Positions 7,239-34,167 of a stretch of DNA of 41,161 nt are shown here, piece by piece (position 1 is the first letter of the stretch; each line of letters begins with the position of its first letter). The notes under the pieces are model-generated. The model was not told where the DNA came from. It worked only from the letters and a program-made list of their open reading frames with translations, and did no database searches. The translations under genes were made by a program, and so were the position numbers. Source of the stretch: a virus; the UHGV virus genome UHGV-0045963; one strand, written 5' to 3'.

Positions 7239-7341
7239 GTTAAATCTCCAGATAGTCGCAGCACCCGTTGCGCCGCATATCTGGTCATTCTATTACCTAA
7301 AAAACCACATATGGATAGAAAGACTGTGAATACGAATAGAT

Positions 7342-7358
7342 ATTACCTTTCGGGTAAT
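7342..7358. promoter_or_regulatory. 17-bp palindromic operator-like site ATTACCTTTCGGGTAAT
   Basis: Perfect inverted repeat of the ATTACC-N5-GGTAAT family; lies in the divergent region between tailspike and the LexA-box gene. Confidence 0.6.
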
Positions 7359-7394
7359 TTGCAAAACGTGCTGGATAGCAAACAAATTATTTGC

Positions 7395-7414
7395 TACTGT
7401 ATAAATATACAGTT
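7395..7414 (+). promoter_or_regulatory. LexA (SOS) box TACTGTATAAATATACAGTT
   Basis: CTGT-N8-ACAG with AT-rich centre, 18 of 20 matches to the consensus TACTGTATATATATACAGTA; ends 6 nt before the ATG at 7420. Confidence 0.7.
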
Positions 7415-7419
7415 ATTGC

Positions 7420-7692
7420 ATGGAGAATATTAAGATGCAGCAGTATCACTATCCACTGGAAGACGGATTTACCGAAAGGATTCACACGCCGGGAGGCGTC
7501 AGGTCACTGGTGGAGGGATCGCACTTGATGAAATTACTCCGGGATCTCGATAAGGATGGATTTAATGTCGATGGCCCACTTGCCGAACTGACTGCACTGA
7601 TTAACTACGTCACCAGCTCACAGATGTCTATGCAGGATCTGCAAACACATCTCGACTATTGTGCCGAACAATTACGAAAACAAACCCGGTAA
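7420..7692 (+). CDS. small antirepressor-like protein (standalone homologue of the Ant C-terminal domain); an alternative start is ATG 7435
   Basis: Residues RIHTPGGVRSLVEGSHLMKLLRDL...ELTALINYV...DLQTHLDYC align with the C-terminus of the 8843..9529 protein (LIHSPSGVLGLTENSLLMNLLNQL...ELTTMFCYI...DIQTHAEYI). Confidence 0.6.
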   Translation: MENIKMQQYHYPLEDGFTERIHTPGGVRSLVEGSHLMKLLRDLDKDGFNVDGPLAELTALINYVTSSQMSMQDLQTHLDYCAEQLRKQTR

Positions 7693-7698
7693 ATTTAA

Positions 7699-7716
7699 AG
7701 GCCGCAAGAGCGGCCT
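7699..7716. terminator. hairpin shared by the convergent genes 7420..7692 and 7715..8443
   Basis: AGGCCGC AAGA GCGGCCT stem-loop; overlaps the stop codon of the minus-strand gene. Confidence 0.45.
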
Positions 7717-8443
7717 ATCGTTTCGCTTTGTGCTCATCCCAGCACGTTTTGCACCATGCCATTAAGCCGTCCGCATTTTGATTATTAGGGTAAAAGCTGG
7801 TTCGTTTTCTGCGGACATTACAAATTGGGCACCACTTCATATGGCGTGTATTCTTTGGGCCATCGAGACACCTTGCACACCACTTAGTCAATCCATCTGG
7901 ATTTTTTGACGATTTCCTGAATTTTTCATATGGAAGGTTTATTCTGCATCGCAAGCACTGCTTGCTACCACTTGAAACTCTGTTAGCTGATTCTTCTTTT
8001 GGCGGCGATACAGAAGGTATTCTTGCTGGCTCTGATACTGCCTGAGGTGCTTTTTTAGATGACTGAGACGATATGTCATCACCAGGGAATCTTCCATGAT
8101 ATGCCGGACGCGTTGACACTCCAGGTGGAAGCTCAGCTGTAAACGGCTTTGGCTGAATCAGTTGCCTCTCTTTTGCTAACTCCTGCTGTTTATAATATGT
8201 CTGGATTACCGCACTATCATAAGCAGGAGGTGCGGAAATATTAGGCGCATTACCTCCAGTTTTTTGAAACTGAGTAGAGGTGTGTTCTATCACCTGTGTA
8301 CGATTAATCGTTATCTCCCCATCTTCGGTCTTTATCGTTTTGTTATGATTAACGACCGTACGATCAGAGATCTTAGTCTTGTTCTGGTTGATAACGTAAA
8401 TAATCACCGCAACCACACCAACAACTATCCAGAAAACTTCCAT
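7715..8443 (-). CDS. membrane-anchored protein with C-terminal tandem Cys4 zinc-ribbon-like repeats, unknown function
   Basis: N-terminal TM (VFWIVVGVVAVIIYVI), Ser/Pro/Gln-rich linker, two repeats C-x2-C ... WC-x-x-C (CLRCR...WCARC; CPICN...WCKTC); RBS GAGGAAAAGCA. Confidence 0.6.
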   Translation of the reverse strand: MEVFWIVVGVVAVIIYVINQNKTKISDRTVVNHNKTIKTEDGEITINRTQVIEHTSTQFQKTGGNAPNISAPPAYDSAVIQTYYKQQELAKERQLIQPKPFTAELPPGVSTRPAYHGRFPGDDISSQSSKKAPQAVSEPARIPSVSPPKEESANRVSSGSKQCLRCRINLPYEKFRKSSKNPDGLTKWCARCLDGPKNTRHMKWCPICNVRRKRTSFYPNNQNADGLMAWCKTCWDEHKAKR

Positions 8444-8462
8444 TGCTTTTCCTCACAATAAC

Positions 8463-8479
8463 ATTACCTTAAAGGTAAT
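8463..8479. promoter_or_regulatory. operator-like palindrome ATTACCTTAAAGGTAAT
   Basis: Perfect 17-bp inverted repeat between divergent genes 7715..8443 and ant. Confidence 0.6.
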
Positions 8480-8555
8480 ATCTTGCTTTCAGGTGATCAA
8501 GCGTTAAACGCAATCAACCAAATACGGTTGATTTTTATATTTATCAGCGTTTATC

Positions 8556-8572
8556 ATTACCTTTGCGGTAAA
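8556..8572. promoter_or_regulatory. operator-like palindrome ATTACCTTTGCGGTAAA
   Basis: Second copy 93 bp from the first, upstream of the ant leader. Confidence 0.55.
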
Positions 8573-8662
8573 TTTACATCGCACTCCTCTTGTGCCATAG
8601 TAATCGAGCACTGGCAAAATCCAGTGCCGGGATTTGCACCCCGGATTACTAAAAGGCGCATA

Positions 8663-8684
8663 CCACGCCAGACGTGGTTTTTTT
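8663..8684 (+). terminator. intrinsic terminator inside the ant leader
   Basis: Stem CCACG / CGTGG with loop CCAGA followed by T7; about 160 nt upstream of the ant ATG. Confidence 0.55.
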
Positions 8685-8842
8685 ATGCGTATAGCACAGT
8701 CATGCCAGAATTATGGTGGGACGTGCAGGGGCACCGAAAGGTGCGCCGGGTCCTTTTAGCCGGTAGTGCAAACCCTGTACGTCTCACCACCAACGAGATT
8801 TGCACCTCAGGTGGTGATTAACCATACTAAAAGGTGATTGCC

Positions 8843-9529
8843 ATGACTGCTAACGTAACCCCATCTGTTTTTCATTTTGAATCAGAAGCAACCATTCGAG
8901 CCATTGTTATTGATGGAAATCCTTGGTTTGTTGCCAAAGACGTTATTAAAGCTCTTCAACTGACAAACCCCACCATGTCAATCAAATCTCTTGATGATGA
9001 TGAAAGGGCTAAATTTAACTTAGGTCGTCAAGGCGAAACCAATATTATCAGCGAGTCAGGCCTCTACACACTGATCCTCCGCTGCCGCGATGCGGTGACA
9101 CCAGGCACTATCCCCTACCGCTTTCGTAAATGGGTTACAGGTGAGGTTCTTCCTCAGATCCGCCGCACCGGAAGTTACATTAAAAACTCGCTCCCGCAGG
9201 AAGAACGCATAAAGATGGTTGCCGACCAGGTAGCCAACGCCACAGCATCAGCAGTGATGCAGGCGATGAAGATAGAGAACAAAACCTACAGTGCCCCACT
9301 GAAGCCCGGCTACCGCAGCCTGATTCACTCGCCGTCTGGTGTTCTCGGCCTGACGGAGAACTCACTGCTGATGAATCTGTTGAACCAGTTACAGGAAGAC
9401 GGGCACGACGTATCGGGCGCGGCGGCGGAGCTGACCACCATGTTCTGCTACATCGTCGGTGTGAGCAAATGCCTGCGTGATATCCAGACTCACGCGGAGT
9501 ACATCAACGACAAAGCAGGATTCTTCTGA
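8843..9529 (+). CDS. antirepressor (Bro-N/Ant-type N-terminal domain plus C-terminal domain shared with 7420..7692)
   Basis: N-terminal Bro-N-like sequence (FHFESEATIRAIVIDGNPWFVAKDV...); RBS AAGGTG 6 nt before ATG 8843; the track start at 8834 is GTG. Confidence 0.75.
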   Translation: MTANVTPSVFHFESEATIRAIVIDGNPWFVAKDVIKALQLTNPTMSIKSLDDDERAKFNLGRQGETNIISESGLYTLILRCRDAVTPGTIPYRFRKWVTGEVLPQIRRTGSYIKNSLPQEERIKMVADQVANATASAVMQAMKIENKTYSAPLKPGYRSLIHSPSGVLGLTENSLLMNLLNQLQEDGHDVSGAAAELTTMFCYIVGVSKCLRDIQTHAEYINDKAGFF

Positions 9530-9600
9530 CGGGCGGCGGCACAGGGATGTGCCTTTAAATAATTCTGTACAGATTGCAGACTGGGGGTGAATAGAGTACT

Positions 9601-9617
9601 ATTACCCCAAAGGTAAA
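9601..9617. promoter_or_regulatory. operator-like palindrome ATTACCCCAAAGGTAAA
   Basis: Same family; 25 nt upstream of the 9643 ATG, near a candidate TTGCAG -35 element. Confidence 0.5.
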
Positions 9618-9642
9618 CCGAGAGTTTACATGAGGGGGAAAC

Positions 9643-9831
9643 ATGGAAATCAACATCATTACATTGCTGAAGGCCATTATTGGCGGAGCGGGCTTAGGCT
9701 TTGCCCTACCAGGCGGATTATCTTTCCTGCTTCCTGCTTTTACTGTTACAGCTGGGATAGCCTATGCATTTGCTGTGGCTGGTGCTGTTGCACTCCCTGC
9801 TATCTATGCCGCAAAGAAGTTAGCCAACTAA
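9643..9831 (+). CDS. small hydrophobic Gly/Ala-rich peptide with double-glycine-leader-like N-terminus
   Basis: 62 aa; MEINIITLLKAIIGG followed by a 47-aa Gly/Ala/Leu-rich hydrophobic region ending KKLAN; RBS GAGGGGG. Confidence 0.5.
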   Translation: MEINIITLLKAIIGGAGLGFALPGGLSFLLPAFTVTAGIAYAFAVAGAVALPAIYAAKKLAN

Positions 9832-9832
9832 A

Positions 9833-10165
9833 ATGCCTGATTTATCTTGGCTTGCGCCCAGAGATGCACAGCAATTGACAAGGTTTTATTTCATACTGTG
9901 CATTGCTTATCTTGCTGTTCATCTGATATGGGATGCCGTTTGCAAAGATACGCCTCCTTTTTCTTTGGATAAGTTGCAATACAAGATGAATGAGGTTTAT
10001 TCATCATCTACTTTTGCAACCAGCGCATTCTTCATTGTTATTCTGTTCGATATGAAGAATCCACTGAGAACTTCAGATGCTTTCATATTCCCATTAATTA
10101 TTGCTGCTCTAACTGGCTTTATGATCTCATTATCAGCAATAGTGCCAAAGAAAGTAAATAACTGA
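9833..10165 (+). CDS. polytopic small membrane protein (candidate immunity or partner protein of 9643..9831)
   Basis: 110 aa, three hydrophobic segments; start 1 nt after the preceding stop; followed by a terminator. Confidence 0.5.
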   Translation: MPDLSWLAPRDAQQLTRFYFILCIAYLAVHLIWDAVCKDTPPFSLDKLQYKMNEVYSSSTFATSAFFIVILFDMKNPLRTSDAFIFPLIIAALTGFMISLSAIVPKKVNN

Positions 10166-10168
10166 ATA

Positions 10169-10190
10169 AGCCCGCGTTGCGGGCTTTTTT
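10169..10190 (+). terminator. intrinsic terminator
   Basis: Stem AGCCCGC / GCGGGCT with loop GTT followed by T6. Confidence 0.7.
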
Positions 10191-10262
10191 ATGGACGAAA
10201 CAAAAGTCAGTGCTACACTCATTGACGCCACATCGAGGTGGCTTATAGATGGAAATGTCACA

Positions 10263-10424
10263 ATGAAAAAAGCATTTGCTGCACTGTTCGTTTTGTTGTC
10301 TCTGGTAGCTTCAACTCAGGCCTTTGCCGGTCGTTGTCAGCACGACAGCGACACTGCTGCTGACGGCTCCCGCTGCGGTGGGCGTTCTGCGGATTCCCGC
10401 CCGGGTGGCGGTGGCATTCGTTAA
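10263..10424 (+). CDS. small secreted Cys-containing peptide (about 53 aa)
   Basis: Signal peptide MKKAFAALFVLLSLVASTQAFA then a Gly/Ser/Asp-rich tail with two Cys; weak RBS; the track start at 10191 directly follows a terminator. Confidence 0.35.
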   Translation: MKKAFAALFVLLSLVASTQAFAGRCQHDSDTAADGSRCGGRSADSRPGGGGIR

Positions 10425-10455
10425 AAACAAGGCCGCGAAAGCGGCCTGTGACATG

Positions 10456-10836
10456 TCACGCAACGCAATTATTACCGCGCCATGTAACATTTTTAATAAT
10501 CTTATCAGCACCAAACTCAACGTAAACAGAGCAACTGAAATGGAGTGTATAACCGCCATCAGTTGTTGCGTATGTGTTTGAATATATAGTATTACCAATT
10601 AGATTAGACGTAGTATTATACGTTGTGGTTTGTGGTACGTTATAACTACCAGAGCTTGAGTAAACATACACTCTGTTTCCATCTGGAGATGTAAGCTCTC
10701 CCTGAGGATACCCCCACTGCTGAACCATTGCGTCTATACTCTGCCCGCGCCACGTAAGCATATTTCTTTCAAACTGTGCAGCTGACTGGCATCCAACGAG
10801 AAGCATAAATCCAAAAATCAAAAATACTTTTCTCAT
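10456..10836 (-). CDS. lipoprotein, candidate superinfection-exclusion or surface moron
   Basis: MRKVFLIFGFMLLVGC lipobox; Thr/Ser/Asn/Tyr-rich mature part; AT-rich context between virion genes and ant. Start could be 10851 or 10872. Confidence 0.6.
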   Translation of the reverse strand: MRKVFLIFGFMLLVGCQSAAQFERNMLTWRGQSIDAMVQQWGYPQGELTSPDGNRVYVYSSSGSYNVPQTTTYNTTSNLIGNTIYSNTYATTDGGYTLHFSCSVYVEFGADKIIKNVTWRGNNCVA

Positions 10837-10921
10837 AATTACCCCTATCATGGAAAAACAGCACCAATCCACAAATTAACTAGTTATTTTATTATTCTTC
10901 CGAACAATACAATTCCGAATA

Positions 10922-11047
10922 CTACAAAGCCGAACCATGCCGCTGCACGCAACAGAGATTCCAATTGAAACCCATTTTTATCAAAATGTATGAATAGCAT
11001 AAAAACGCTGCACATATTAGTACAATAAAAGTTATTTGAACCATCAT
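10922..11047 (-). CDS. very small hydrophobic ORF (41 aa), frame uncertain
   Basis: Strong RBS AAAGGAG 5 nt before ATGATG; hydrophobic product MMVQITFIVLICAAFL...; the ORF-track alternative is 10884..11072 in another frame with no RBS. Confidence 0.25.
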   Translation of the reverse strand: MMVQITFIVLICAAFLCYSYILIKMGFNWNLCCVQRHGSAL

Positions 11048-11055
11048 ATCTCCTT

Positions 11056-13530
11056 TTATTGCGGAGTGACATCCTGTGGTCGCCACCAGTATGTCTGGTT
11101 AAACTCTTTCTTCGAACGTTGCTCCATTTTACGCAAATAGCCTGGTGAAAAATACTCCTGCATCTGGTTAAAGATCATGTGATCGAGAGCCGCCTTCAAG
11201 TACCAGAGATTCGCACCAGGCATCAAACCTTTCCCCAGCTTCACCAGATCACCACCAGTCTGCTCACTCTTCCCTTCCACAGCATTTAACGGTATGCCCT
11301 GAGCAATCTTCACTACGTCATCAACCAGACCAGCTACCGGGCCAAGCATCGACGCCAGCGCGCCGCTTCCGTACCTAGTGTGATCTGACAATAAAAAGTC
11401 ACCGTAAAGGCCAAGACCACCACCTTTCAGTAGAGCACCAAGCCAGAATTTTGCGGCATCTTCTCCTGTCATCTCTCGAGGATTACGACCAGACGCAAGG
11501 TCGTTAAGTTGCTGCGACAAAGCGCCAAGAATGGTCGTACTGGCAATAAACGTCGCAATATATGCCGCACGCCCACCAGCAGACGGCATACCCATAGCGC
11601 GTGACCAGTGACGCATAACAACCGAGATAGGGAACGATTTAAACAGGAAAACACTTCTCGTTAATTCACCTTTCCATGTTCCACGCTGAATACCAGAACC
11701 GGTTATCAGTTGCTCACGTGCTCCCGGTGTAATAACAGCCATATCAACTTCTTCAGTTACGGCACCGAGCAGTTTACGCATTGCCTCAAATTTCACGCGT
11801 TCAGGCTCACCAAGATGTTTAACTGCTGAATCAGGGATACGCATAATGCTTTCCGGTGTCAGCATCGTATTATTACCGTTCCCCCAGTCCTCCTGTTTCG
11901 CCAGCTTCCATACGCTCCAGTCTGTGTCAGTAATCCCTTTGCTTTTCAGGATACGAAAATCAGAGTCATCGAGGCTACGAAGGTCTGGTGTCCGTGACAC
12001 TACTTCTCCCAGGCTTCCCATCATGGTTACGCCATAGGCGCGCTTGTGCGCATCTGACCATGCTGTAAGCCCACTGGCACGCATTACCGCCGTTGCCGCC
12101 CAACGAGACACTGACGGCCCCATATTATCCATCGCCCAGCGGTTAACGCTGCCAAGTAGAGATTCCATCGCCAGACCAGCGCGGCGCGCCCGCGCAAGTT
12201 CTGTACGGTTCGTTGGGTCCATAGCTTCAAGCTGGTTGCGGAATAACTGGTTCATTGGAAGGTTGGTAACCTTCGCAGACAGATACATGGTTCCAAGATC
12301 AGAGAACGATGACAGCAACGCGGATCCGAGTCTGCTGGCAACCAGCCAGTTGCGGATATTGTCAGACCATCGCGCGATGTGCGGATTCGCTACAGGCTGT
12401 GTCTTTCCGGAAATAAAGTTGTACAGATTCTCTGTGTTGTTCGCCAGCCGCTCGACTTTACCGGTTTTACTCGGGTTAGCTGTTGCCGTTTCTGCCTTCA
12501 CCTGATCAAGAAGAGAGCGGAAAACATGATCGGGGTTTGGGCCATATGTTTCCACCAGTGCAATATCTTTACTGATACCTTCCAGGTGACCGACCATGAT
12601 TTCCCATAGAGAGCGATCGCCATAAAGTTGCTGATATTGCAGATAGGAATCTGCATCTTTGAAATGTATCTGTCGTGATGCATTACCACGGTTAGCACGT
12701 GCGCCGGAAATTCGCATTCCGGTATCAGTAAGCTTATTCAGCCCACCAGTAGCGATCGTGTTATAAGCCTCTCCAAGAAATGAAGACAACTCGGCATCGT
12801 TCATCAGTTGTCCATCGGCTCGGATATAATATTTGCGATCCAGCCTACCTATAACATCGCTAACCCACTTATCCTTTGATACTGCCCCAACCTTTTCCAT
12901 AGAATGATGTTGAGGGATCCCCCAGTTTTCGAGATAGCCAATGTCCCCACCAGCATCATTAAACCGGCGGCGCAGCAGCTCTGTAACTTCTCTCCACGCC
13001 TTAGCACCGTTTCTTGCTTTAGCATTGCCAGTAGTTTGCCCCCGCATTTCATATACCAGGTCACGTACGCCCGCTTCATCTTCAAACAGACCAAAAAAGC
13101 GAGGATCAACTGCTTCGAATGCCTCCTGCAATTGACTCAATGCATAATCACGGGTGGCTTTTGTTCTGGATTCAACAGAGAGGAAATTAGATTTACCGTC
13201 TGCATTAAAAGCTATAGTACGGTTAAGAGCGCCAAGTTTCCCATCAGCCCCTTGATAGCTATTGATAAATTTATCCAATCTCTGACGCGCGGCTATAGTG
13301 AGAGCCACACGACGTTTCTTTAATGCCGCTTCTCGCTGTAATTCTTCAGATGCCAATTGTGCTGCTCGATATAGCCGCTCTGATTCGGAAAGTTGTCGCC
13401 ACGACATAGGGTCATCACGAGCAATGGAGCGCATATTTCGATAAATGCGGTCTTCAATGTTCTGTATTTCTCGCGCCGTTAACATGCGCTGCGCCGCCTG
13501 CTGAACCGCTTGTATACATTCCTGTCTCAT
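11056..13530 (-). CDS. large virion internal/ejection protein (podovirus core protein)
   Basis: 824 aa; last large gene of the coupled virion operon before the accessory island; RBS GAGAGG. Confidence 0.65.
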   Translation of the reverse strand: MRQECIQAVQQAAQRMLTAREIQNIEDRIYRNMRSIARDDPMSWRQLSESERLYRAAQLASEELQREAALKKRRVALTIAARQRLDKFINSYQGADGKLGALNRTIAFNADGKSNFLSVESRTKATRDYALSQLQEAFEAVDPRFFGLFEDEAGVRDLVYEMRGQTTGNAKARNGAKAWREVTELLRRRFNDAGGDIGYLENWGIPQHHSMEKVGAVSKDKWVSDVIGRLDRKYYIRADGQLMNDAELSSFLGEAYNTIATGGLNKLTDTGMRISGARANRGNASRQIHFKDADSYLQYQQLYGDRSLWEIMVGHLEGISKDIALVETYGPNPDHVFRSLLDQVKAETATANPSKTGKVERLANNTENLYNFISGKTQPVANPHIARWSDNIRNWLVASRLGSALLSSFSDLGTMYLSAKVTNLPMNQLFRNQLEAMDPTNRTELARARRAGLAMESLLGSVNRWAMDNMGPSVSRWAATAVMRASGLTAWSDAHKRAYGVTMMGSLGEVVSRTPDLRSLDDSDFRILKSKGITDTDWSVWKLAKQEDWGNGNNTMLTPESIMRIPDSAVKHLGEPERVKFEAMRKLLGAVTEEVDMAVITPGAREQLITGSGIQRGTWKGELTRSVFLFKSFPISVVMRHWSRAMGMPSAGGRAAYIATFIASTTILGALSQQLNDLASGRNPREMTGEDAAKFWLGALLKGGGLGLYGDFLLSDHTRYGSGALASMLGPVAGLVDDVVKIAQGIPLNAVEGKSEQTGGDLVKLGKGLMPGANLWYLKAALDHMIFNQMQEYFSPGYLRKMEQRSKKEFNQTYWWRPQDVTPQ

Positions 13531-13535
13531 TTAAT

Positions 13536-18857: not shown

Positions 18858-21328
18858 CAGAATCCCCCAACAGTAAGACGAGGAATAACGGCAAGAACAG
18901 ACAGCGGCAACGGATCAAGCTGACGGATTTTTACACGTCCGTTTTTGCCCCAGTTACTGTCTAGTTTCACTTCTACTTTTCCGGTAGCATCATCAACAGG
19001 ATCATCGTAGAACTCGAATTCACGCTGTGGATATTCGTACCATTTACCGCCGGGCGTAGTCGCCCAGATGCCGCGACTGGCATTCACAACCAGAGTAACG
19101 GAGGGGATCACCTGTTTTTTGTCCAGCAGCGTTTCCTGTCCGTTAATGTTGATATCCAGTGTTTCGAATTCAGCAGTTATTGGCAGGCCGATGTGCACTA
19201 CAGCCCCCGGAGATTCCAGCGTGACGGCACCTCCGGAAACCACTTTCTGTGGTTCCACGTTCGCATCAGAGAGAATGTTTACGGTCTGGCCTTCAAGATG
19301 AGACAGGCCTCCAAATGTCCGGCGCGCCATCTGCCAGTTCGTGGTGGCCACATTCCTGAGGGATGGCGGGACGTTCCTGTTAGCACGAACCACTACAGCG
19401 GTATTGCTGGTTACAGAAATAATGTCGCAACGTAATTCTTTTGACACTTCATCGCCAGTATCAGGATCAGTTCCGGTATAAGGGAACTGTAGTTGCGCAC
19501 CGACATCACTACTGGTGAAGTACGCACCACCAGAAACACTGATTGTATATTCCGCGCGGTAATCCCATTCGCCAGAACCACCAGTGATTGTCATCGTTCT
19601 GTCAGACGTATTTCTTCCATCATAGCTAAGGCCAGAATCAACAAAGAAAGCGTCTTCATCGCTGGTAAATAAACGGCTGGACAGCCGCTCGATGTATCTC
19701 ACTGTTTGCCCGTTAACGGTTCGGTTAACGACGAAATACACCGCATCTTCATTGCCTTCGCTGATACTGCATGTGCTTTCATATTTTCCGGTACTGGATT
19801 GTGGTGCCCATGCAAAAACCTGCTGATCACGCAAATAGGTCATCACCAGTAATTTACCGTCATCACGAATGCAGAAGGCGCTGGAGTAAGGGACAATAGA
19901 GAAGCACCAGTCAACAATGCTGTGCTTCTGAAAAAGATGATTGGCAAGGATAGTAAGGTCGTTCCCCTGATAGCCGTCAACATCGAATGAATAGGCCAGA
20001 TCACGGACAACACTGCCTTTCTCCTGGACGAACAGAGCAATATTCGCCACGGCAATTGGTGGGACGTTGCTTGAGCCATTTGATCCCTGAGAGCTGAATG
20101 CAAATGATGATGGGGTTAACACTTTGTTCTGGTCGCCGGTGATGACGTACTCACCTCCGGAAGTCAGCGCCACCAGCGAACCAACATCAATCAGGTGGCG
20201 GATCTCATTAACCTGACGCCCGGCATAGGTGTAGATAATTCTGTCGTCATCCTGCGTAGGATTGCTTTTGCCAAAATCCTTATAATCCCCGGTACGGCTG
20301 GCCCAGATAGTCTGAGGGAACGCAGTCGATGCGGCGAAGTAAAGACGTTGTTGATAATAAACAACAGTGCCAGGATAACCATTAACACTGTTCCAGGCAT
20401 ATTTAGCCCATTTATAGCTGGCATTATCCTCGCCAACGACCTGCGAAGGAATATAGGAAATCACCTCGGCAGTTGCAGTAGTTCCATTTGCAGCAGTGAT
20501 ACGGGCAATGCCAAAACCACTGTGCAGATATTCCCACTCAATGCCAGTATCATCATCACCGGATCCACCCCAGCCATCCCATGATGTGCCTTCTGTATGC
20601 GAAGGGCGCAAAGTACCTGTTTTGCCTGCTGTAACGGCGCGATAGTAGTTACTGTCTGCACGGCGAATATCGCCAATCGACGTACTCTTACTGGTTTCCC
20701 ATACCGGCACTGAATCCACTGCAGGCTGTTCCAGATAGAACAATTTGCCTACCTGCTCCGCGCCAAAAATAGAGGCGCTTGCCGTTAACGTAATTGTCCC
20801 GGTGCTGGCGCTGGCATAAACCGTCACTGACTCGTCAATATTGATATCTTCAAATGGCCCGTTCTTCGTTACCACATCAACCAGTTGCCAGTTGTCATGA
20901 GCATAGCGACGCAACTCTTTCGGCGGGTATGCCGGATGAACAAGCGTAAGCACGTCGGCGCTTTGCGTGAATTTAATTCGGAACAGATCGGCTTCAGTAT
21001 ATGGCGTGGCAATTTCATAAATAACATTGCTGCTGTTCAGCACCAACGCACCATCTTTGATAACGCGCATGTACTGGTGTCCGAACTCCAGAGCATAGGT
21101 CTGAACCGTCGAGAACTGGAACGGGATCAGGCGGCATTTCCGATTTGGGTATTTGGCGGCACCGACAAAACGCGTACCTGGTCGATTCTCAACGCCGCCA
21201 TACTGCCGCACGATAAAGTTATCGCACTTGCGCAATGCCACCTGGTACTTCGCCATGTCAATACGCCCGTACAACGACGGTCCAATCTCACCACCGGCAA
21301 AGCTGGGCTGGATCCAACTGATAGCCAT
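18857..21328 (-). CDS. tail tubular protein B-like (nozzle)
   Basis: 823 aa, immediately downstream of and coupled to the tube A-like gene; size and position as in T7-like tails. Confidence 0.55.
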   Translation of the reverse strand: MAISWIQPSFAGGEIGPSLYGRIDMAKYQVALRKCDNFIVRQYGGVENRPGTRFVGAAKYPNRKCRLIPFQFSTVQTYALEFGHQYMRVIKDGALVLNSSNVIYEIATPYTEADLFRIKFTQSADVLTLVHPAYPPKELRRYAHDNWQLVDVVTKNGPFEDINIDESVTVYASASTGTITLTASASIFGAEQVGKLFYLEQPAVDSVPVWETSKSTSIGDIRRADSNYYRAVTAGKTGTLRPSHTEGTSWDGWGGSGDDDTGIEWEYLHSGFGIARITAANGTTATAEVISYIPSQVVGEDNASYKWAKYAWNSVNGYPGTVVYYQQRLYFAASTAFPQTIWASRTGDYKDFGKSNPTQDDDRIIYTYAGRQVNEIRHLIDVGSLVALTSGGEYVITGDQNKVLTPSSFAFSSQGSNGSSNVPPIAVANIALFVQEKGSVVRDLAYSFDVDGYQGNDLTILANHLFQKHSIVDWCFSIVPYSSAFCIRDDGKLLVMTYLRDQQVFAWAPQSSTGKYESTCSISEGNEDAVYFVVNRTVNGQTVRYIERLSSRLFTSDEDAFFVDSGLSYDGRNTSDRTMTITGGSGEWDYRAEYTISVSGGAYFTSSDVGAQLQFPYTGTDPDTGDEVSKELRCDIISVTSNTAVVVRANRNVPPSLRNVATTNWQMARRTFGGLSHLEGQTVNILSDANVEPQKVVSGGAVTLESPGAVVHIGLPITAEFETLDININGQETLLDKKQVIPSVTLVVNASRGIWATTPGGKWYEYPQREFEFYDDPVDDATGKVEVKLDSNWGKNGRVKIRQLDPLPLSVLAVIPRLTVGGF

Positions 21329-26827: not shown

Positions 26828-27034
26828 TTACTGACCAAGCAGCGTTTTACCGCTGGTATTAGCGGTTGATGTGTCGCCCTGAGAACCGGTAAGCAGCGTA
26901 GAACTACGACCAGCAGCAGCGCGACGGCGACGTGTTTCTTCGTCGCGGGCATCAACAACGGCGGCATCCTGCTCCTGTGGTGCTGCCTGAACTTCTGGTG
27001 TTGCAGGCACTGATGGTGAGCTACCCATGCACAT
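26828..27034 (-). CDS. small protein upstream of portal
   Basis: 68 aa, Ala/Thr/Arg-rich; RBS GGAG 9 nt upstream. Confidence 0.4.
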   Translation of the reverse strand: MCMGSSPSVPATPEVQAAPQEQDAAVVDARDEETRRRRAAAGRSSTLLTGSQGDTSTANTSGKTLLGQ

Positions 27035-27123
27035 ATCAATGACTCCGTACGCAATTAAATTATTACCAATTTAACCACATATGATTTATTTATCGTAGAA
27101 GGTTGACATTTAACGCGTTAATT

Positions 27124-27140
27124 ATTACCTTTCAGGTAAC
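27124..27140. promoter_or_regulatory. operator-like palindrome ATTACCTTTCAGGTAAC
   Basis: Same family; preceded by TTGACA (27103..27108); in the intergenic region between the portal operon and the plus-strand tRNA unit. Confidence 0.55.
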
Positions 27141-27461: not shown

Positions 27462-27538
27462 GTGGCATTAGCTCAGTTGGACAGAGCAACCGCCTTCTAA
27501 GCGGTTGGTCGCAGGTTCGAATCCTGCATGCCACGCCA
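27462..27538 (+). tRNA. tRNA-Arg (anticodon UCU, decodes AGA)
   Basis: Hand-folded cloverleaf: 7-bp acceptor stem GTGGCAT/ATGCCAC, D-stem GCTC/GAGC, anticodon stem ACCGC/GCGGT with loop CTTCTAA, T-arm GCAGG-TTCGAAT-CCTGC, discriminator G and encoded CCA. Confidence 0.9.
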
Positions 27539-27725: not shown

Positions 27726-27736
27726 AAGGTGAGATT

Positions 27737-28111
27737 ATGAACGACCAGCAAATCGAAAAAGAAATCGTTGAGAAAGGCAAAACCGCTCCGCGTGTAACAC
27801 CCGAGAAAATTGAAGGCCTCATTTGCAGTGAGCATTTTTTCACTGCTGCGCAGGGTGACCACCAGGCTAAAGAAGATGACCTTATTTATAATCCGGAGCC
27901 TTATGTCGAAGCCACCCCTGATGCTCTGCACCTTCTCACTTTCTGCGTATTGGTACTGAAGAATGGCTTCACCGTTACCGGAGAGAGTGCCTGTGCAAGC
28001 CCGGAAAACTTTGATGCAGAAATTGGTCGGAAGATTGCCCGGCAGAATGCTGTAAACAAAATCTGGATGCTCGAAGGTTACTTGCTGAAGCAGAAGTTAA
28101 GCGAGCAATAA
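27737..28111 (+). CDS. hypothetical 124-aa protein (moron-type gene next to the tRNA)
   Basis: RBS AAGGTG; opposite strand to the surrounding virion genes; no family recognised. Confidence 0.6.
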   Translation: MNDQQIEKEIVEKGKTAPRVTPEKIEGLICSEHFFTAAQGDHQAKEDDLIYNPEPYVEATPDALHLLTFCVLVLKNGFTVTGESACASPENFDAEIGRKIARQNAVNKIWMLEGYLLKQKLSEQ

Positions 28112-28132
28112 CACCGTGACATGTCACAAACA

Positions 28133-28160
28133 GCCAGCCGATGAGCTGGCTTTGTTTTAT
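28133..28160. terminator. terminator in the convergent region between 27737..28111 and the terminase large subunit
   Basis: Stem GCCAGC / GCTGGC with loop CGATGA followed by TTTGTTTTAT. Confidence 0.55.
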
Positions 28161-28201
28161 CCTCACCAGAGGATATCAGCAGTATTATCCCCACCAGCGG
28201 A

Positions 28202-29677: not shown

Positions 29678-30270
29678 TGATTGCCATCCTGACGTTCTTT
29701 CAGTCTCTTCCTGGCTGCCGCTATGCGATCAGCAATTGTCACATTCACATTAACATCCAGGCGTTCTTTGAATGCGTTGACGTCGACGTGCTTACCAATC
29801 AGTTCGAGGTTCTTCACCTTGTCAGGCCATTTAATTTTTTTGAGGATTGTCTCTATCGAATCCTCGTTCATGTTCATGATGGTCGATGACAGATCAAAGC
29901 CACTAAGCGTAGTGCGCCAGATTTTCGGCCACTCGCGGATTGGCTTAAGGCTCCCATCGTCGTTGAGGATGTCGATCACGTCCATCTGGTCGATCTCCAC
30001 CAGGCGCATGAGAACGTAATCAGCACTGACGCGCATTCGTTTGTTGCGCTCTTCCATCAGCTCGGCAATCCGTTTTTGAATGCGTTCATCGCGCATCATG
30101 AGACTGGCTTTAACTGCCGCTGTATTTGGGGAGAATCCTGCGTTAATCGCAGCCTGAGTCTGGTTTTCAGGCGTTTGGATGTATGACTGGCAATAAGCCT
30201 CCTGCATTGCTGTTAGTGGCTTAAATTGCGTTGATTTGCGTTTATAGGTTTTAGGTTCAGCAGGCATCAT
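29674..30270 (-). CDS. terminase small subunit
   Basis: About 198 aa from the first in-frame ATG (track start is TTG); basic helical N-terminal region; coupled to the large subunit. Confidence 0.65.
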   Translation of the reverse strand: MMPAEPKTYKRKSTQFKPLTAMQEAYCQSYIQTPENQTQAAINAGFSPNTAAVKASLMMRDERIQKRIAELMEERNKRMRVSADYVLMRLVEIDQMDVIDILNDDGSLKPIREWPKIWRTTLSGFDLSSTIMNMNEDSIETILKKIKWPDKVKNLELIGKHVDVNAFKERLDVNVNVTIADRIAAARKRLKERQDGNQ

Positions 30271-30344
30271 AACCACCGTGGTAATAGTTACCGTTGTGGT
30301 AATAGTACCATGCAAAATAAAGCCGCCATAGTTGGCGGCAGTAT

Positions 30345-30557
30345 TCAAAGTCCATCAAATTCATCGTAAAAACTCTCGTCAAGATACCCTTCCCATTTAC
30401 CGCGAATGAAAATTACATCCTCGCCGCAAGGGTGCTGACTGTCGATAACTATATCCCTCCTGGCGCAACCATACTTATGCATGAGAAATTTAACCTCTTT
30501 CGGAAAATTTGCTGAGTTATCTCTCATATCTTCAAGGTCGTAGCGTATTTTTGGCAT
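30345..30557 (-). CDS. hypothetical small protein
   Basis: 70 aa from the internal ATG; the track start is GTG inside the 12-bp palindrome. Confidence 0.4.
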   Translation of the reverse strand: MPKIRYDLEDMRDNSANFPKEVKFLMHKYGCARRDIVIDSQHPCGEDVIFIRGKWEGYLDESFYDEFDGL

Positions 30558-30574
30558 AACACCTTCGTGACATG

Positions 30575-30913
30575 TCACACTATTAATTTCGTTTCATGCC
30601 AGCCTTTAGTCACCCAGCATTGCGAGTCACCATTACACGGGCATGAATTAACGGGAACTCTCTCGCCGCACTTACCGCAAAGTTTTCTGCTGATCGATTT
30701 TATACGCCCGCGCACACGTGCATCATCCTGGCGGATCAGCAGCGCGATGTACTCGGCCATTTCATAGGGATCGTGACCAGGGCGCCGGGCGGCGCAGTTC
30801 CGCGCCAGCATTTCCTGCTCCTGCTTATCCAGCACCAGTTCAATTTTGCGCTCACCGGCGGCGGACTGCCGAGCGCGCTGCGCGGCTTTGCGCTCTGCTG
30901 CTGATTTAGCCAT
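30575..30913 (-). CDS. small basic protein with C-terminal Cys-rich zinc-ribbon-like motif
   Basis: N-terminal MAKSAAERKAAQRARQ; C-terminal CGKCGERVPVNSCPCNGDSQC; RBS AAGGTG. Confidence 0.5.
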   Translation of the reverse strand: MAKSAAERKAAQRARQSAAGERKIELVLDKQEQEMLARNCAARRPGHDPYEMAEYIALLIRQDDARVRGRIKSISRKLCGKCGERVPVNSCPCNGDSQCWVTKGWHETKLIV

Positions 30914-31187
30914 CAATATTCACCTTTATAGCGAACACCTTTACCGGTTTATCGCCGAAGTGCGGATGTGTGATTGTCTTGATTTCATATCCGTCATACG
31001 GGACGTCAATTCTGCGGCTGGAATCGTCGCGCTTCGGATATCCCTTTGTGATAATCAGGCGGTCATACTCGCGGAACATAATTCGCTTATTCCAGTAGTC
31101 ATTACACAGGCGATACTCTTCCGTTTTCTCTCCGCGAATCATGGCATCGAAGTATTCACCTTTAACGGCAAGTTGCAGGTTAGCCAC
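30906..31187 (-). CDS. hypothetical protein, possibly PUA/ASCH-like
   Basis: 93 aa; GTG start with strong RBS AAGGAGG; the family assignment is from memory only. Confidence 0.45.
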   Translation of the reverse strand: MANLQLAVKGEYFDAMIRGEKTEEYRLCNDYWNKRIMFREYDRLIITKGYPKRDDSSRRIDVPYDGYEIKTITHPHFGDKPVKVFAIKVNIDG

Positions 31188-31464
31188 GACCTTCCTCCTT
31201 TGGCTTGTGAATTTGTATCGTCATGCCGCTTTGAGTGGTGACTACAACGACAGAACCAGGCTGAAGACTGTTAAGATTGAATGCTTCGTAAAACGAAGCC
31301 AAGGCCAGCGCTTTTTTATTCTTTCGGTTCCACCAACGCCATCCATTGCTACAGGCTACACTGACAATCCACTGTCCACTCCTGTAAGCCATATAAAACC
31401 AGATGAGCAAAACCTGAATGAATGCTATCCAGTCAATAATCGTATATTTCGCGAAGGAGACCAT
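31180..31464 (-). CDS. small membrane protein
   Basis: N-terminal TM (IIDWIAFIQVLLIWFYMAY); ATG overlaps the upstream stop by 1 nt. Confidence 0.45.
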   Translation of the reverse strand: MVSFAKYTIIDWIAFIQVLLIWFYMAYRSGQWIVSVACSNGWRWWNRKNKKALALASFYEAFNLNSLQPGSVVVVTTQSGMTIQIHKPKEEGRG

Positions 31465-32213
31465 CAATTAACCTCCTGCGGCGGTTCCGGTAGAGGCATC
31501 CAGTACAAGGCGTTCCCTAACCACGATAAAGTGCCGTCGCTCAACTCCACGTATTCCCCTTGTACCTGTCCTGCCATATACTCGCCGTGCTTTGAATAAA
31601 TTAAAATCCAATCATCTTGAGCGGGCATTCGCTCACTACAGCTTATCCAACCATCCGGAGTTACCGGATAGTTGCCAGCCTGAACAGTAGGCATATCAGG
31701 ACCTTTGCGAATCGCCCTGGCAAGATCGATTGGGTCGTCGTACAACCAGTCACCTGTTTGCGGATGATTGGCTTCTGCCAATTGTGCAGCCCACTCCAGG
31801 CCGTCTTTGTGTCCTTGCAGATAGTCCAGCGGTAACTCATCACTATTACTTACAGGTTCGGCCTGAAGCATGGCGGCGCGGCAGGCGTTCCAGCCTCTCA
31901 CCTCTGCAATAGCGGCAACAGCATCGACCGCGTACATTTTAAGAGGGTTAGGCATTGGTTTTTCTTCAGGTACTACTGGCACTGGAGGGGCGGCATAAAC
32001 AGGAATAACGTCCGATTGCTCTTTATTGCTTTCATCCGTCAAAGCCCAGAATAATTTCCCGGCCGGATGTTTGAAAATATAAGCAACTGGATCTGCTTCC
32101 AGCGATGCCAGTGCAATTTCATAAGCCCGGCGTTCAATATTGTCTCGAACGTCCAGGCTGCTGATACGCTCTTTGATTTCTTTAATCAGTTCTTTGTCGG
32201 TAAAAGTAGTCAT
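31464..32213 (-). CDS. DUF551-like domain protein (nin-region type)
   Basis: C-terminal GWISCSERMPAQDDWILIY...WMPLPEPP resembles the DUF551 module common in lambdoid prophages; RBS GAGGA. Confidence 0.55.
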   Translation of the reverse strand: MTTFTDKELIKEIKERISSLDVRDNIERRAYEIALASLEADPVAYIFKHPAGKLFWALTDESNKEQSDVIPVYAAPPVPVVPEEKPMPNPLKMYAVDAVAAIAEVRGWNACRAAMLQAEPVSNSDELPLDYLQGHKDGLEWAAQLAEANHPQTGDWLYDDPIDLARAIRKGPDMPTVQAGNYPVTPDGWISCSERMPAQDDWILIYSKHGEYMAGQVQGEYVELSDGTLSWLGNALYWMPLPEPPQEVN

Positions 32214-32216
32214 GTG

Positions 32217-32504
32217 TTAGTCCTCATCCACTTCAACGCCATCTTTCAGCGTGATGCCGTGCCAATCATCAGCCCAACTGGTTAGCCCTGGCGCATCAAT
32301 GCTAGGCATATAAACGCTTGCAGTGTGGTAGCCCTTATCGTTATCAATGCTGGCAACGTGCTCGCCGTTGTATGCGCTCAGCGTGTCCAGGACGCTATAA
32401 AACTTTCCTCCGGCTGCCCTGAAATCCTTTACAGCCTTCACAAGGCGATTCCACGCTTTTTCCTGTTCTGGCGTCAGGTCGATTAATTCCTGCAAAGTTG
32501 CCAT
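32217..32504 (-). CDS. hypothetical protein
   Basis: 95 aa from the ATG with strong RBS AAGGAG; the track start is TTG. Confidence 0.45.
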   Translation of the reverse strand: MATLQELIDLTPEQEKAWNRLVKAVKDFRAAGGKFYSVLDTLSAYNGEHVASIDNDKGYHTASVYMPSIDAPGLTSWADDWHGITLKDGVEVDED

Positions 32505-32505
32505 A

Positions 32506-33162
32506 TCACTCTCCTTTGATGCCAATGTTTACAGCCTGACAAGCCTCTTTGAGCACCCAGTCAACAGCGTCTTTCCATGCTCCGGTTTCGACTGGCGGAT
32601 TTTCACGCTTAACCTGTTCATAGAAGCGCACTGCTTTAACCAGTCCTTCCGGTACTACTGGCGATGGTTGTTTAGCTTCTAAATCAGCAATTCTGTCAAC
32701 CACGACATCTACGGCATCTGAAAAGCCGAACCAGTTACTCCACTCCGGCCTATCCCCGGTTGCTGCAAAGTACATATCAGCTAAAGCAGACTCAGCATGG
32801 TCACGCTCATCGATGAGTTGCTCTTCGCTTTTCTCCAGTTCAGCAATACGCTTACTCCCATCCGAGATAACACCTTCGTAATACTCACGCTGCTCGTTGA
32901 GTTTTGATTTTGTCTCCTCAAGCTCAACTCTCAGCTTCCCTACCGTTAGCGCAATATCCTCGTTCTCCTGGTCGCGGCGTTTGATGTATTGCTGGTTTCT
33001 TTCCAGTTCATCCAGCAGTGCCAGCGCGATATCTGGCGAAAAGTGCTTCATAAAATCGTTAAGCGCATTAATTCGCTGATCGAAGGGCATTACAGGTGCT
33101 TCACCAGCAATTTTTGTTTTTTCAGCGATTTCACGAAGCTTTTGATAATCAATCTTGCTCAC
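32506..33162 (-). CDS. coiled-coil protein, possibly Ea22-like
   Basis: 218 aa, charged helical central region; GTG start with strong RBS AAGGAGG overlapping the upstream stop. Confidence 0.45.
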   Translation of the reverse strand: MSKIDYQKLREIAEKTKIAGEAPVMPFDQRINALNDFMKHFSPDIALALLDELERNQQYIKRRDQENEDIALTVGKLRVELEETKSKLNEQREYYEGVISDGSKRIAELEKSEEQLIDERDHAESALADMYFAATGDRPEWSNWFGFSDAVDVVVDRIADLEAKQPSPVVPEGLVKAVRFYEQVKRENPPVETGAWKDAVDWVLKEACQAVNIGIKGE

Positions 33163-33677
33163 TGGTTGCCTCCTTTGCGAAGCTGGGCAGCAAAGTCAAC
33201 TAACCACTCAGTCATTTCAACCTTCCCTACCAGGTCTGAACCAGGGTGCATACAGCAATCACTCTGCGCCGCTTTGAAATCCTTATACTCATATTCTTGG
33301 GCCACCAGATTTTTTGCAGCTTCTATAGCAGCATCCACCCCCTGCGCCCGCACTTCAGACAGGAAAGCATCGGTGGCTGGCATATTTCCTGTTGCCTTCA
33401 TTGCCTCCAAAATAACCAGAACGCCATCTCGCCCAATCTCCTCGCAGATAACCTCGGTGCTGTCGCCAACAACATCGCAAAATGCCTGAACTGCTTTACG
33501 AGCCAGCGCATTCTCCGCAGCCAGCGCATTAGCACGCACCAGTTGCACTTCCAGTTGCGTTGCCAAATAGCTGATCAGCTTTGCCACACTGCGCATATCA
33601 ACGGCACCACATTCTGCTTTCAGTTCCGAAGCCATCTCATGCCCGGCGGCAACTAACCCTTTGATATTACTTTCCAT
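33159..33677 (-). CDS. hypothetical helical protein
   Basis: 172 aa; RBS GAGGG. Confidence 0.45.
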   Translation of the reverse strand: MESNIKGLVAAGHEMASELKAECGAVDMRSVAKLISYLATQLEVQLVRANALAAENALARKAVQAFCDVVGDSTEVICEEIGRDGVLVILEAMKATGNMPATDAFLSEVRAQGVDAAIEAAKNLVAQEYEYKDFKAAQSDCCMHPGSDLVGKVEMTEWLVDFAAQLRKGGNQ

Positions 33678-33738
33678 CTTTACCCTCGCTTATCCACATA
33701 ACTTATTGATTACATTGATAACTAAAAAGATCGTCGAT

Positions 33739-34086
33739 TCAGAACTCTTCGATGTTCCAGCCACCACCTGCTTTCTTTGGCTTAACCGTTACCCCGATGA
33801 TTCGGAACGGATACTGATCTGCGGCGACTTTGGTTTTCACTCTGGCGTCATCGGTCCAGAATCCCCCTTTCACTTCGTGCAGTTCCATCTCGCCGGTGGC
33901 GAGCATCACAGCAAAATCTGGCGTATAGAACGTGTTGTCAGCTAACCGCAGCTTGATACCCTCAAATCGATACCAGACGATTTCTCCTGCACGTTTACGC
34001 AGCTCAAGGTGCTGGCAATACGCAGATTCTGTTTTGTTCATCTGGCCTGTTTTGAGTCGACCAAGAGCCTGCATCTGTTTTCTCAT
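33739..34086 (-). CDS. putative PD-(D/E)XK-type nuclease (VRR-NUC/DUF1064-like)
   Basis: Motifs TPDF ... ELHEVKG consistent with a PD-(D/E)XK core; first gene after the terminator that follows the P-like gene. Confidence 0.5.
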   Translation of the reverse strand: MRKQMQALGRLKTGQMNKTESAYCQHLELRKRAGEIVWYRFEGIKLRLADNTFYTPDFAVMLATGEMELHEVKGGFWTDDARVKTKVAADQYPFRIIGVTVKPKKAGGGWNIEEF

Positions 34087-34088
34087 GA

Positions 34089-34105
34089 TTTACCCCTTAG
34101 GTAAT
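34089..34105. promoter_or_regulatory. operator-like palindrome TTTACCCCTTAGGTAAT
   Basis: TTACC-N5-GGTAA directly upstream of the 34086 start codon. Confidence 0.5.
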
Positions 34106-34150
34106 TAAAAACCACATAAGACACGAAATCAATAGATTTTAGAATATTTT

Positions 34151-34167
34151 ATTACCTCTAAGGTAAT
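34151..34167. promoter_or_regulatory. operator-like palindrome ATTACCTCTAAGGTAAT
   Basis: Perfect inverted repeat 46 bp from the previous site. Confidence 0.6.

Follow-up and report, generated by a model that had tools for sequence, protein, structure and literature searches.

Paired repressor operators and a conserved 14-bp dyad upstream of transcription units in a Uetakevirus-type prophage

Results

A shared arrangement of operators and a 14-bp dyad

The DNA examined here, referred to as the window, is the UHGV virus genome UHGV-0045963 at its full length of 41,161 nucleotides, and our subject is a composite arrangement of sequence elements found upstream of its tailspike gene, its portal operon and a nuclease (DUF1064) gene, all on the minus strand. 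The initial annotation had described the same order in these three regions, namely a 17-mer, a gap, a 9-mer, a further gap, a second operator or half-site and then the gene, and this order is read directly from the sequence. Alignments with related prophages indicate that the shared cis-architecture upstream of transcription units is real, conserved and under selection. On balance, we favour the interpretation that the three regions are part of at least seven repressor-controlled promoter regions, in which paired sites for the lysogenic repressor Rep bracket the promoters and a 14-bp dyad would be read by a second regulator. The elements of the three regions are as follows.

7342-7358: distal Rep operator of the tailspike region, ATTACCcgaaaGGTAAT, between the divergent ant and tailspike genes; its epsilon15 homologue is 19895-19911
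7303-7316, minus strand: tailspike dyad, ATCCATATGTGGTT, 22.2 bits; contains TATGTGGTT, and its left half gives the -35-like TCCATA
7291-7297, minus strand: proximal GGTAATA half-site of the tailspike region, at 50 bp from the distal operator's right half; adjoins the predicted -10 TAGAAT
27124-27140: distal Rep operator of the portal region; also covers the -10 of a divergent plus-strand promoter
27073-27086, minus strand: portal dyad, AATCATATGTGGTT, 20.0 bits; contains TATGTGGTT and lies inside a conserved block of about 50 nt before gp3 and the portal gene
27061-27067, minus strand: proximal GGTAATA half-site of the portal region, at 62 bp from the distal operator's right half; start of gp3 at 27034
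34151-34167: distal Rep operator of the nuclease (DUF1064) promoter; its epsilon15 homologue is 35906-35922
34110-34123, minus strand: nuclease dyad, TGTCTTATGTGGTT, filling the 17-bp promoter spacer
34089-34105: full proximal Rep operator of the nuclease region, spaced 62 bp from its distal partner; coincides in part with the -10, the probable start site and the ribosome-binding site, with the ATG at 34086

The 9-mer box TATGTGGTT is indeed shared by the three minus-strand regions, with three exact occurrences in the window, on the minus strand only (7303-7311, 27073-27081 and 34110-34118), against an expectation of 0.28; none of 100 shuffles reached three. The spacings originally proposed needed correction: the gap from operator to box measured 30, 42 and 32 nt rather than 27-38 nt, and that from box to second site 5, 5 and 4 nt rather than 3-4 nt. 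When the three regions are compared with one another, the operators and the dyad are held in common and no similarity is found elsewhere.

A fourth copy of the box, TATATGGTT, lies at 3873-3881 before the lysis genes. The box extends 5 nt upstream into a 14-bp quasi-palindrome with the halves ATyCATA and TrTGGTT, of which it forms the right half. A weight matrix built from the late sites was scanned over the window and detected eight dyad sites (nine strand hits), compared with about two hits in shuffles; seven of the eight are intergenic (P = 7e-7), the intergenic share of the window being 9.9% by the gene map made in this analysis. The five sites beyond the three regions are given below.

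3873-3886, minus strand: dyad ATTCATATATGGTT of the lysis cassette (the fourth late copy), 23.7 bits; the ATG of the first lysis gene is at 3812, and there is no operator
8516-8529: dyad AACCGTATTTGGTT in the immI-like control region, a matrix match
36072-36085, minus strand: pre-gp40 dyad, AACCAAATCTGGTT, adjoining the -35 of TTGATC-17-CAAAAT
37326-37339, reverse orientation: PL dyad, ATGCTTATTTGGTT, filling the spacer of the plus-strand promoter
35936-35949: dyad match inside the gp40 coding region, probably due to chance

The original set of three regions thus proved too narrow, with operators standing at 14 places and the dyad at seven intergenic places that include PL and the early pre-gp40 region.

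The 39 distinct instances of the dyad fall into six site classes. In them, four positions never vary (C4, T8, G11 and T14), A1, A7, G12 and T13 are nearly constant, and the pairs C4/G11, A1/T14 and A7/T8 are all invariant or nearly invariant. The mean number of self-complementary pairs is 4.2-5.4 out of seven in five of the six classes, compared with a window-wide background mean of about 1.75, and only 1.4% of the 14-mers in the window reach five such pairs. The constancy of C4 and A1 constitutes independent evidence, since neither position belongs to the 9-mer that served to locate the late sites. Furthermore, G is never found at the C4 position, although it would be expected there at times if the hexamer had been selected as a sigma-70 -35 element.

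Conservation among related phages and prophages

The window shows 96-97% DNA identity over most of its length to the phiV10-group E. coli phages PAS61, phiv142-3, HEMP4, phiV10 and TL-2011b, and 76-81% to Salmonella phage epsilon15, SPN1S and Enterobacter phage Tyrion. On these identities it is a Uetakevirus-type (epsilon15/phiV10-like) temperate podophage prophage with its late genes on the minus strand. Positions 1-4100 of the window differ from most relatives. Further relatives were collected by a terL-centred search of species-representative genomes, which gave prophages from Erwinia, Scandinavium, Klebsiella, Buttiauxella, Rahnella, Citrobacter, Superficieibacter, Pantoea, Kluyvera and Pseudescherichia as well as a Rahnella-like copy on a contig binned as Advenella; a portal-protein search of IMG/VR returned only copies of 99-100% identity, which were of no use for assessing divergence.

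The arrangement is kept in epsilon15, SPC32H, Tyrion, BUCT554, 65FD and the Klebsiella prophage, and is also present in the prophages of Erwinia, Scandinavium, Buttiauxella, Rahnella, Pantoea, Citrobacter, Kluyvera, Superficieibacter and Pseudescherichia. The distribution of dyad sites in epsilon15, SPC32H, Tyrion, BUCT554 and 65FD is the same as in the window. At each orthologous site the dyad columns are fixed in prophages of more than ten genera while the flanks diverge, and the shared element therefore survives alignment with homologous prophages. All 13 relatives with Rep operators carry the portal copy of the dyad, and 11 of the 13 have a match at the pre-gp40 position. An alignment of 12 portal regions shows that the halves of the operator, a GTCAAT block and all positions from AAATAA through TGGTTAAATTGGTAATAATTTAA are constant; the leader is free to vary, as are the 15 nt separating operator from GTCAAT, and the GTCAAT block deviates in Pantoea. 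In the Klebsiella prophage, no divergent genes separate the tailspike gene from the lysis genes that come right after it; the leader hairpin is kept there, and the upstream part of the box has decayed to TAAACGGTT. A separate lysis promoter may be dispensable there because of this gene order.

The 17-bp operators and the repressor switch

The full operator is a 17-bp palindrome, ATTACC-N5-GGTAAT. TTACC-N5-GGTAA occurs 11 times exactly and three times with one mismatch, giving 14 sites in the window where 0.71 were expected, and all 14 lie outside genes (P = 8e-15). The half-site string GGTAATA likewise occurs 16 times, compared with 2.8 expected. In addition to the operators and half-sites listed above, the following were located.

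37282-37298 and 37344-37360: PL operator pair, 62 bp apart
36091-36105: pre-gp40 operator with one mismatch, within the control region 36045-36105 (minus strand)
8463-8479 and 8556-8572: operators of the divergent immI-like control region (8463-8572)
30270-30302: two abutting operators at terS, reaching the terS start codon
9601-9617: exact Rep operator, just before the plus-strand open reading frames at 9630-10424 and downstream of the second antirepressor

Counterparts of the SPC32H repressor and antirepressor are encoded in the window, together with a LexA box before ant, a gene that Kim and Ryu reportedly found in 2013 to be repressed by LexA.

36642-37226, plus strand: rep gene, predicted binder of the 17-bp operators; full-length match to SPC32H Rep (PDB 5D50_A, E = 3.5e-42)
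7420-7692, plus strand: ant gene, antirepressor of 90 amino acids; matches SPC32H Ant (PDB 5D50_E, E = 4.4e-47)
7397-7412, plus strand: perfect LexA box, CTGTATATTTATACAG, directly before ant as in SPC32H, in the intergenic region shared with the tailspike module

Published work on SPC32H has established that Rep binds DNA as a tetramer and that tetrameric Ant dismantles it. From its N- to its C-terminus, Rep comprises a domain for DNA binding, one for dimerisation and one for tetramerisation, the last being of a kind also present in the looping regulator Rco (PMC9986798).

The epsilon15 record (NC_004775) carries sites labelled ‘protein_bind: repressor (lysogeny)’ at 12-27 (before terS), 2931-2947 (before gp3/portal), 19895-19911 (before the tailspike gene), three positions at PL and 35906-35922 (before the resolvase gene), and comparison of this annotation with our site scans indicates that the distal operators of all three regions are homologues of these sites. 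By palindrome match and position, the 17-bp operators correspond to the already-known Rep sites, since the record marks homologous sites and the window encodes full-length homologues of SPC32H Rep and Ant. Hence they do not belong to a late-specific system. The proximal half-sites, the proximal nuclease operator and the 62-bp pairing are not marked in the epsilon15 record, which gives only the distal sites of these regions. The 14-bp dyad is not annotated in that record, and none is described in the accessible literature, although the primary papers on these phages may say more. Compared with the literature and records, it is the dyad and the paired-operator geometry that appear to be new, the operators themselves being already known.

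The spacing of the paired sites is well conserved. In the window, the nuclease pair (34090/34152) and the PL pair (37283/37345) are each 62 bp apart. Eleven loci possess the nuclease-promoter pair; the spacing is 62 bp at ten of them and 61 bp at the other, and several further relatives have two abutting operators at this promoter in place of a spaced pair. At PL the nine pairs read are spaced by 62-63 bp, and those of Rahnella and Pantoea by 74 bp. In the portal region, the half-site GGTAAT falls at 62 bp, exactly the position that a proximal operator would give to its right half, and the tailspike half-site is found at 50 bp in six of six genomes, as counted by eye. Given this conserved 62- or 50-bp spacing and the tetrameric state of Rep, the geometry fits one Rep tetramer clamping or looping two sites around a promoter.

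Predicted promoters and the position of the dyad

Candidate promoters and leader structures, with their coordinates, are listed here.

34104-34132, minus strand: predicted nuclease sigma-70 promoter TTGATT(34127-34132)-17-TTTAAT(34104-34109); the proximal operator begins at -8
37282-37360, plus strand: region of the predicted PL promoter TTGACA(37317)-17-AATTAT(37340), total score 11.8; same geometry as the nuclease promoter
36045-36105, minus strand: region of the pre-gp40 promoter TTGATC-17-CAAAAT, predicted in 8 of 8 genomes tested
8463-8572, plus strand: region of the predicted immI-like promoter TTGATT-18-TATCAT, which leads into the isrK/C4-like RNAs and the second antirepressor
27103-27108 and 27126-27131, plus strand: predicted divergent promoter in the portal region, TTGACA(27103-27108)-17-TACCTT(27126-27131), score 12.5, the highest of all regions scanned
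3823-3875, minus strand: lysis leader hairpin, ending at or in the Shine-Dalgarno sequence of the first lysis gene
7248-7284, minus strand: tailspike leader hairpin, starting 2-3 nt after TAGAAT and ending in the Shine-Dalgarno sequence

The nuclease orthologues in most relatives have a predicted TTGAww-18-TAAATT promoter scoring 8.7-11.9 bits, a level reached by about 0.1% of positions or fewer. For the tailspike gene, the best candidate in seven of seven genomes is of the type TTCATA-17-TAGAAT, with TCCATA in the window, TACAAT in 65FD and TAAACT in BUCT554. The window's TCCATA-17-TAGAAT, with its -10 at 7287-7292, scores 7.1 and its orthologues up to 11.1; the -10 is kept as TAnAAT in six of the seven genomes and is TAAACT in the seventh. 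Here the -35-like hexamer corresponds to dyad positions 2-7, and the GGTAA half-site falls at -17 to -13. In the portal region, no promoter passes the consensus scan, and three weak registers compete (AATAAT or AATAAA ending 6 nt before the box purine, ACGAyA-17-TAAATT and ATCATA-17-TAATTT). The lysis promoter candidates are inconsistent between genomes. The idea of a family of similar promoters thus stands for the shared, conserved cis-architecture and falls for the promoters themselves, which are unalike: a predicted promoter of the regular sigma-70 kind at the nuclease gene, TCCATA-17-TAGAAT at the tailspike gene and none passing the scan at the portal operon.

On the predicted registers, the centre of the dyad lies at about -19.5 at the nuclease and PL promoters, where it fills the 17-bp spacer, at about -29.5 at the tailspike promoter and probably the portal promoter, where the left half is the only -35-like hexamer, and at about -40.5 at the pre-gp40 and immI-like promoters, at both of which it adjoins the -35. 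These registers step by approximately 10 bp, about one helical turn. Activator-dependent late promoters of the MotA, Lpa or Ogr type have a box at one set distance from the -10 in place of the -35. The distance from the dyad to the -10 is fixed at 10 nt at the tailspike promoter (seven genomes), may be the same at the portal, and differs at the lysis and nuclease promoters and the Rahnella portal.

The portal ‘distal operator’ covers the -10 of the predicted divergent promoter, which is close to consensus, and the conserved GTCAAT block is its -35. TTGACA-17-TACCYT was seen in five genomes checked by eye, including epsilon15, Tyrion, BUCT554 and a Klebsiella phage. The promoter points towards tRNA-Arg(tct) at 27462-27538 (plus strand), on the strand opposite to the late genes.

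The 5′ arm of the lysis leader hairpin starts at the GGUUUA of the box, with z-scores of -5.6 to -6.9 in relatives, and the lysis leader of the window, although unrelated in sequence, pairs from the same point (z = -2.8). The epsilon15 record (NC_004775) labels the lysis hairpin an RNase III site.

Discussion

A proposed mechanism and the points against it

In the interpretation that we favour, one Rep tetramer in the lysogen would hold the distal operator together with the proximal operator or half-site, bracketing the core promoter, and occupancy of each pair would shut the unit directly, the late operons included. Upon DNA damage, release of ant from LexA would allow Ant to strip Rep off the DNA, as in SPC32H. 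The dyad would be the binding site of a second conserved, dimeric DNA-binding protein of phage or host origin, which would sit on one face of the helix and modulate the promoters once Rep is gone; its likely effect would be to help the -35-poor late promoters and to damp PL and the nuclease promoter. The dyad appears to recur at most promoters of this phage group, and the mechanism is one that we infer.

Several observations weigh against this interpretation. The nuclease-promoter class of dyads is only weakly symmetric (a mean of 3.2 pairs out of seven), conservation is clearly lower in its left half than in its right across the dyad copies, and the symmetry of the PL, pre-gp40 and nuclease sites is partly circular because the matrix used included the left half. 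The lysis copy in the window is without any operator, whereas the lysis regions of epsilon15, SPC32H, Tyrion, BUCT554 and 65FD possess one, unlike the window's (3813-4118). The 50-bp spacing at the tailspike promoter is a non-integral number of helical turns. All promoter registers are predictions from consensus scoring, with two or three competing candidates each at the portal and lysis regions, and our literature searches for transcription-start data on these phages found none. Moreover, no protein could be assigned to the dyad from co-occurrence and presence or absence among relatives.

A more far-reaching possibility, which we advance tentatively and hold to be less probable than the reading above, is that the dyad defines a second Uetakevirus regulon. 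Its position at about -19.5, -29.5 or -40.5 in nearly every promoter would then allow a dimeric protein to order early, middle and late transcription after the removal of Rep, as a repressor at promoters with the dyad in the spacer and as an activator at those with the dyad next to the -35 or in its stead.

Alternative explanations

The portal and lysis regions lend themselves to a different, and in our judgement unlikely, explanation, namely that the box marks the transcription start. The -10 would end 6 nt before the purine of TAT(R)TGGTT and the start would be that purine, with TGGTT as the initial transcribed sequence and the foot of the leader hairpins, the proximal half-site at +12 to +17, and the distal operator overlapping or adjoining the -35 region. 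At most portal and lysis sites a -10-like hexamer does stand exactly 6 nt upstream: at the portal AATAAT in at least eight genomes, AATAAA in the window, AAATAT in Rahnella and AATAAT in Pantoea, and at the lysis genes the candidates TTGAGA-18-AATGAT in the window and TTGTAG-16-TATGAT in SPC32H. At both sets of sites, only purines occupy the variable position of the box. The lysis leader hairpin begins at GGUUUA of the box, and the different leader of the window also pairs; a tailspike hairpin starting 2-3 nt past TAGAAT fits badly with TAGAAT as the -10, and a single operator would overlap the -35 region at the lysis promoters of relatives. The leader hairpins speak for transcription starting no further downstream than the box at the lysis genes, and perhaps at the tailspike gene. 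These hairpins could, however, come from read-through transcripts, and the hexamers upstream of the tailspike box are poor (TTCTAT, AACGAT and TTCGGT). At the nuclease, PL and pre-gp40 promoters the fit is lost altogether, good sigma-70 promoters there placing the dyad in the spacer or upstream of the -35, and both the invariant C4 and the dyad symmetry are left unexplained; it is for this misfit and for the lack of any account of C4 and the symmetry that we rank this explanation second.

It is also conceivable, though improbable, that the box is purely a sigma-70 element, an extended -10 (T-R-T-G-n) with a TTWAAT-type hexamer after it, which would recur as a matter of common promoter design. 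The extended -10 consensus is TRTGn, and dyad columns 8-12 read T-R-T-G-G in agreement with it; the portal sequence TGTGG plus TTAAAT, and TTGTCA-18-TTAAAT in Rahnella and TGGTCA-17-TTTAAT in Pantoea, would suit such a promoter. The next hexamer is acceptable at the portal only, where even so the consensus scan found no promoter; it is TTTTTT at the tailspike, TTTTTA at the nuclease and TTTGGT at the PL site, and at pre-gp40 it is TTGATC, which acts there as a -35. Moreover, all of the following hexamers have T in place of the near-invariant A at -11. Since the hexamers are inconsistent, we reject the extended -10 as a general explanation. Least probable is that the resemblance is inherited or accidental, the modules being old duplicates of one promoter cassette or AT-rich palindromes that came together by chance, with a functionless box. 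The centre of the dyad, CATATATG, is an AT-rich self-complementary string that arises easily, and one 14-mer match lies within a coding region (35936-35949); yet the modules share no similarity outside the operators and the dyad, the same columns are fixed at orthologous sites in more than ten genera despite diverging flanks, the dyad sites are strongly biased towards intergenic DNA, and the upstream part of the box has decayed to TAAACGGTT in the one relative whose lysis promoter may be dispensable.

The consensus sites for DnaA, IHF, CRP, PhoP and NarL were compared with the dyad by eye, and none fits. Nor do we retain the view that the PL and pre-gp40 copies are nut sites or terminators: the PL copy is upstream of the predicted start, and the T-run at pre-gp40 is the spacer of a conserved promoter.

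Candidates for the dyad-reading protein

A dedicated factor had been suggested as a possibility for the promoter family. The box does remain a candidate site for a factor other than the repressor; no such factor was identified, and the gp49-like protein failed the co-occurrence comparison. The candidates considered were the cro-like gp39, which has weak similarity to the N-terminal helix-turn-helix of Rep, the zinc-ribbon protein gp40, and the gp49-like, PerC-family and AlpA-like proteins. The gp49-like gene (30575-30916) is the last early gene before terS and belongs to a PHROG annotated ‘transcriptional regulator’. It was rejected as the factor in that Pectobacterium phage ZF40 and the lambdoid Chlobot encode homologues of 67-78% identity, and their dyad sites are not above chance. 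The gp49-like family has no Pfam or PDB match and no fold recognisable by sequence, and its AlphaFold model is poor (pLDDT 68). Rep, gp39, gp40 and the gp49-like protein are present in every relative whose region was covered, and presence/absence profiling therefore picks out none of them; the PerC-like and AlpA-like genes lay mostly outside the flanks covered in this profiling. The protein could also be one encoded by the host.

Comparison with known systems

In phage P1 (C1) and in phage L5 (stoperators), one lysogenic repressor acts at more than ten dispersed sites, which are asymmetric; the L5 stoperators are orientation-biased and act within transcription units. The predicted Rep system resembles these in placing the repressor directly at many transcription units, late functions included, beyond the immunity region, and differs in that its sites are symmetric palindromes, most of which flank promoters in pairs of fixed spacing. 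Phage proteins are also known to read boxes embedded in promoters, among them the T4 MotA box at -30, the P1 late element at -22 (read by Lpa) and the sites of phi29 p4. Like these, the dyad is a short box inside, or in place of, the -35 or the spacer at -35-poor promoters and may act oppositely on early and late units. It differs in being a dyad, in occurring in three registers, in being present also at promoters with a good -35, and in that none of the candidates could be assigned to it as a cognate protein.

Rco of plasmid pLS20 has operators 75 bp apart and a TetDloop domain, and SPC32H Rep has been likened to it (PMC9986798). With lambda CI at OL-OR and with Rco, the system would share a tetrameric repressor with a looping-type domain and two operators at a fixed distance flanking a promoter; the putative loop in the window would differ in being very short (62 bp) and in being repeated at several promoters. 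The closest parallels are epsilon15 (NC_004775) and the Rep-Ant-LexA switch of SPC32H (PDB 5D4Z/5D50), which have the 17-bp palindrome, homologous Rep and Ant and a LexA box before ant; the epsilon15 repressor sites also agree in position (before terS, gp3/portal, the tailspike gene, PL and the nuclease gene). The epsilon15 record differs in marking only the distal sites of the three regions, and no dyad.

No description of late-gene timing in epsilon15/phiV10-type phages was found in the accessible literature, in which only the Rep-Ant-LexA switch has been studied. These phages serve as reporter and typing phages for Salmonella and E. coli O157. The paired sites suggest that the lysogenic repressor occupies the late operons directly. 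The result would be an ordinary one if the dyad proved to be only a start-site or promoter signature. The conserved 14-bp element offers a concrete target for mutation, or a bait (for example ATCCATATATGGTT) for the missing regulator, and the candidate promoters are now named with coordinates.

Other features of the window

Downstream of the immI-like promoter lie the following features.

8608-8684, plus strand: isrK Hfq-binding RNA, Rfam match of 67 bits
8709-8794, plus strand: C4 antisense RNA of P1/P7 immI, Rfam match of 78 bits
8834-9529, plus strand: second antirepressor, 231 amino acids, its C-terminus belonging to the family of the small SPC32H-type Ant

A second, putatively RNA-controlled antirepressor cassette is thus present in the prophage and is itself flanked by Rep operators.

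In the terS region (30268-30339, minus strand), an intrinsic terminator, gccgccaactatggcggc, with a T-run (30314-30339) is followed by the two abutting operators; neither a dyad nor a convincing promoter was found in this region. Between the cro-like gene and gp40, at 36130-36225, long homopolymer runs of C, G and T surround a run of N (approximately 36153-36198); the pattern has the look of an assembly gap or of masking and does not seem biological. Finally, the leader of the cro-like gene contains an inverted repeat, ATATTTAT-N7-ATAAATAT (36495-36525, minus strand), which is conserved in Tyrion, BUCT554 and the Pseudescherichia prophage and not in epsilon15-type phages.

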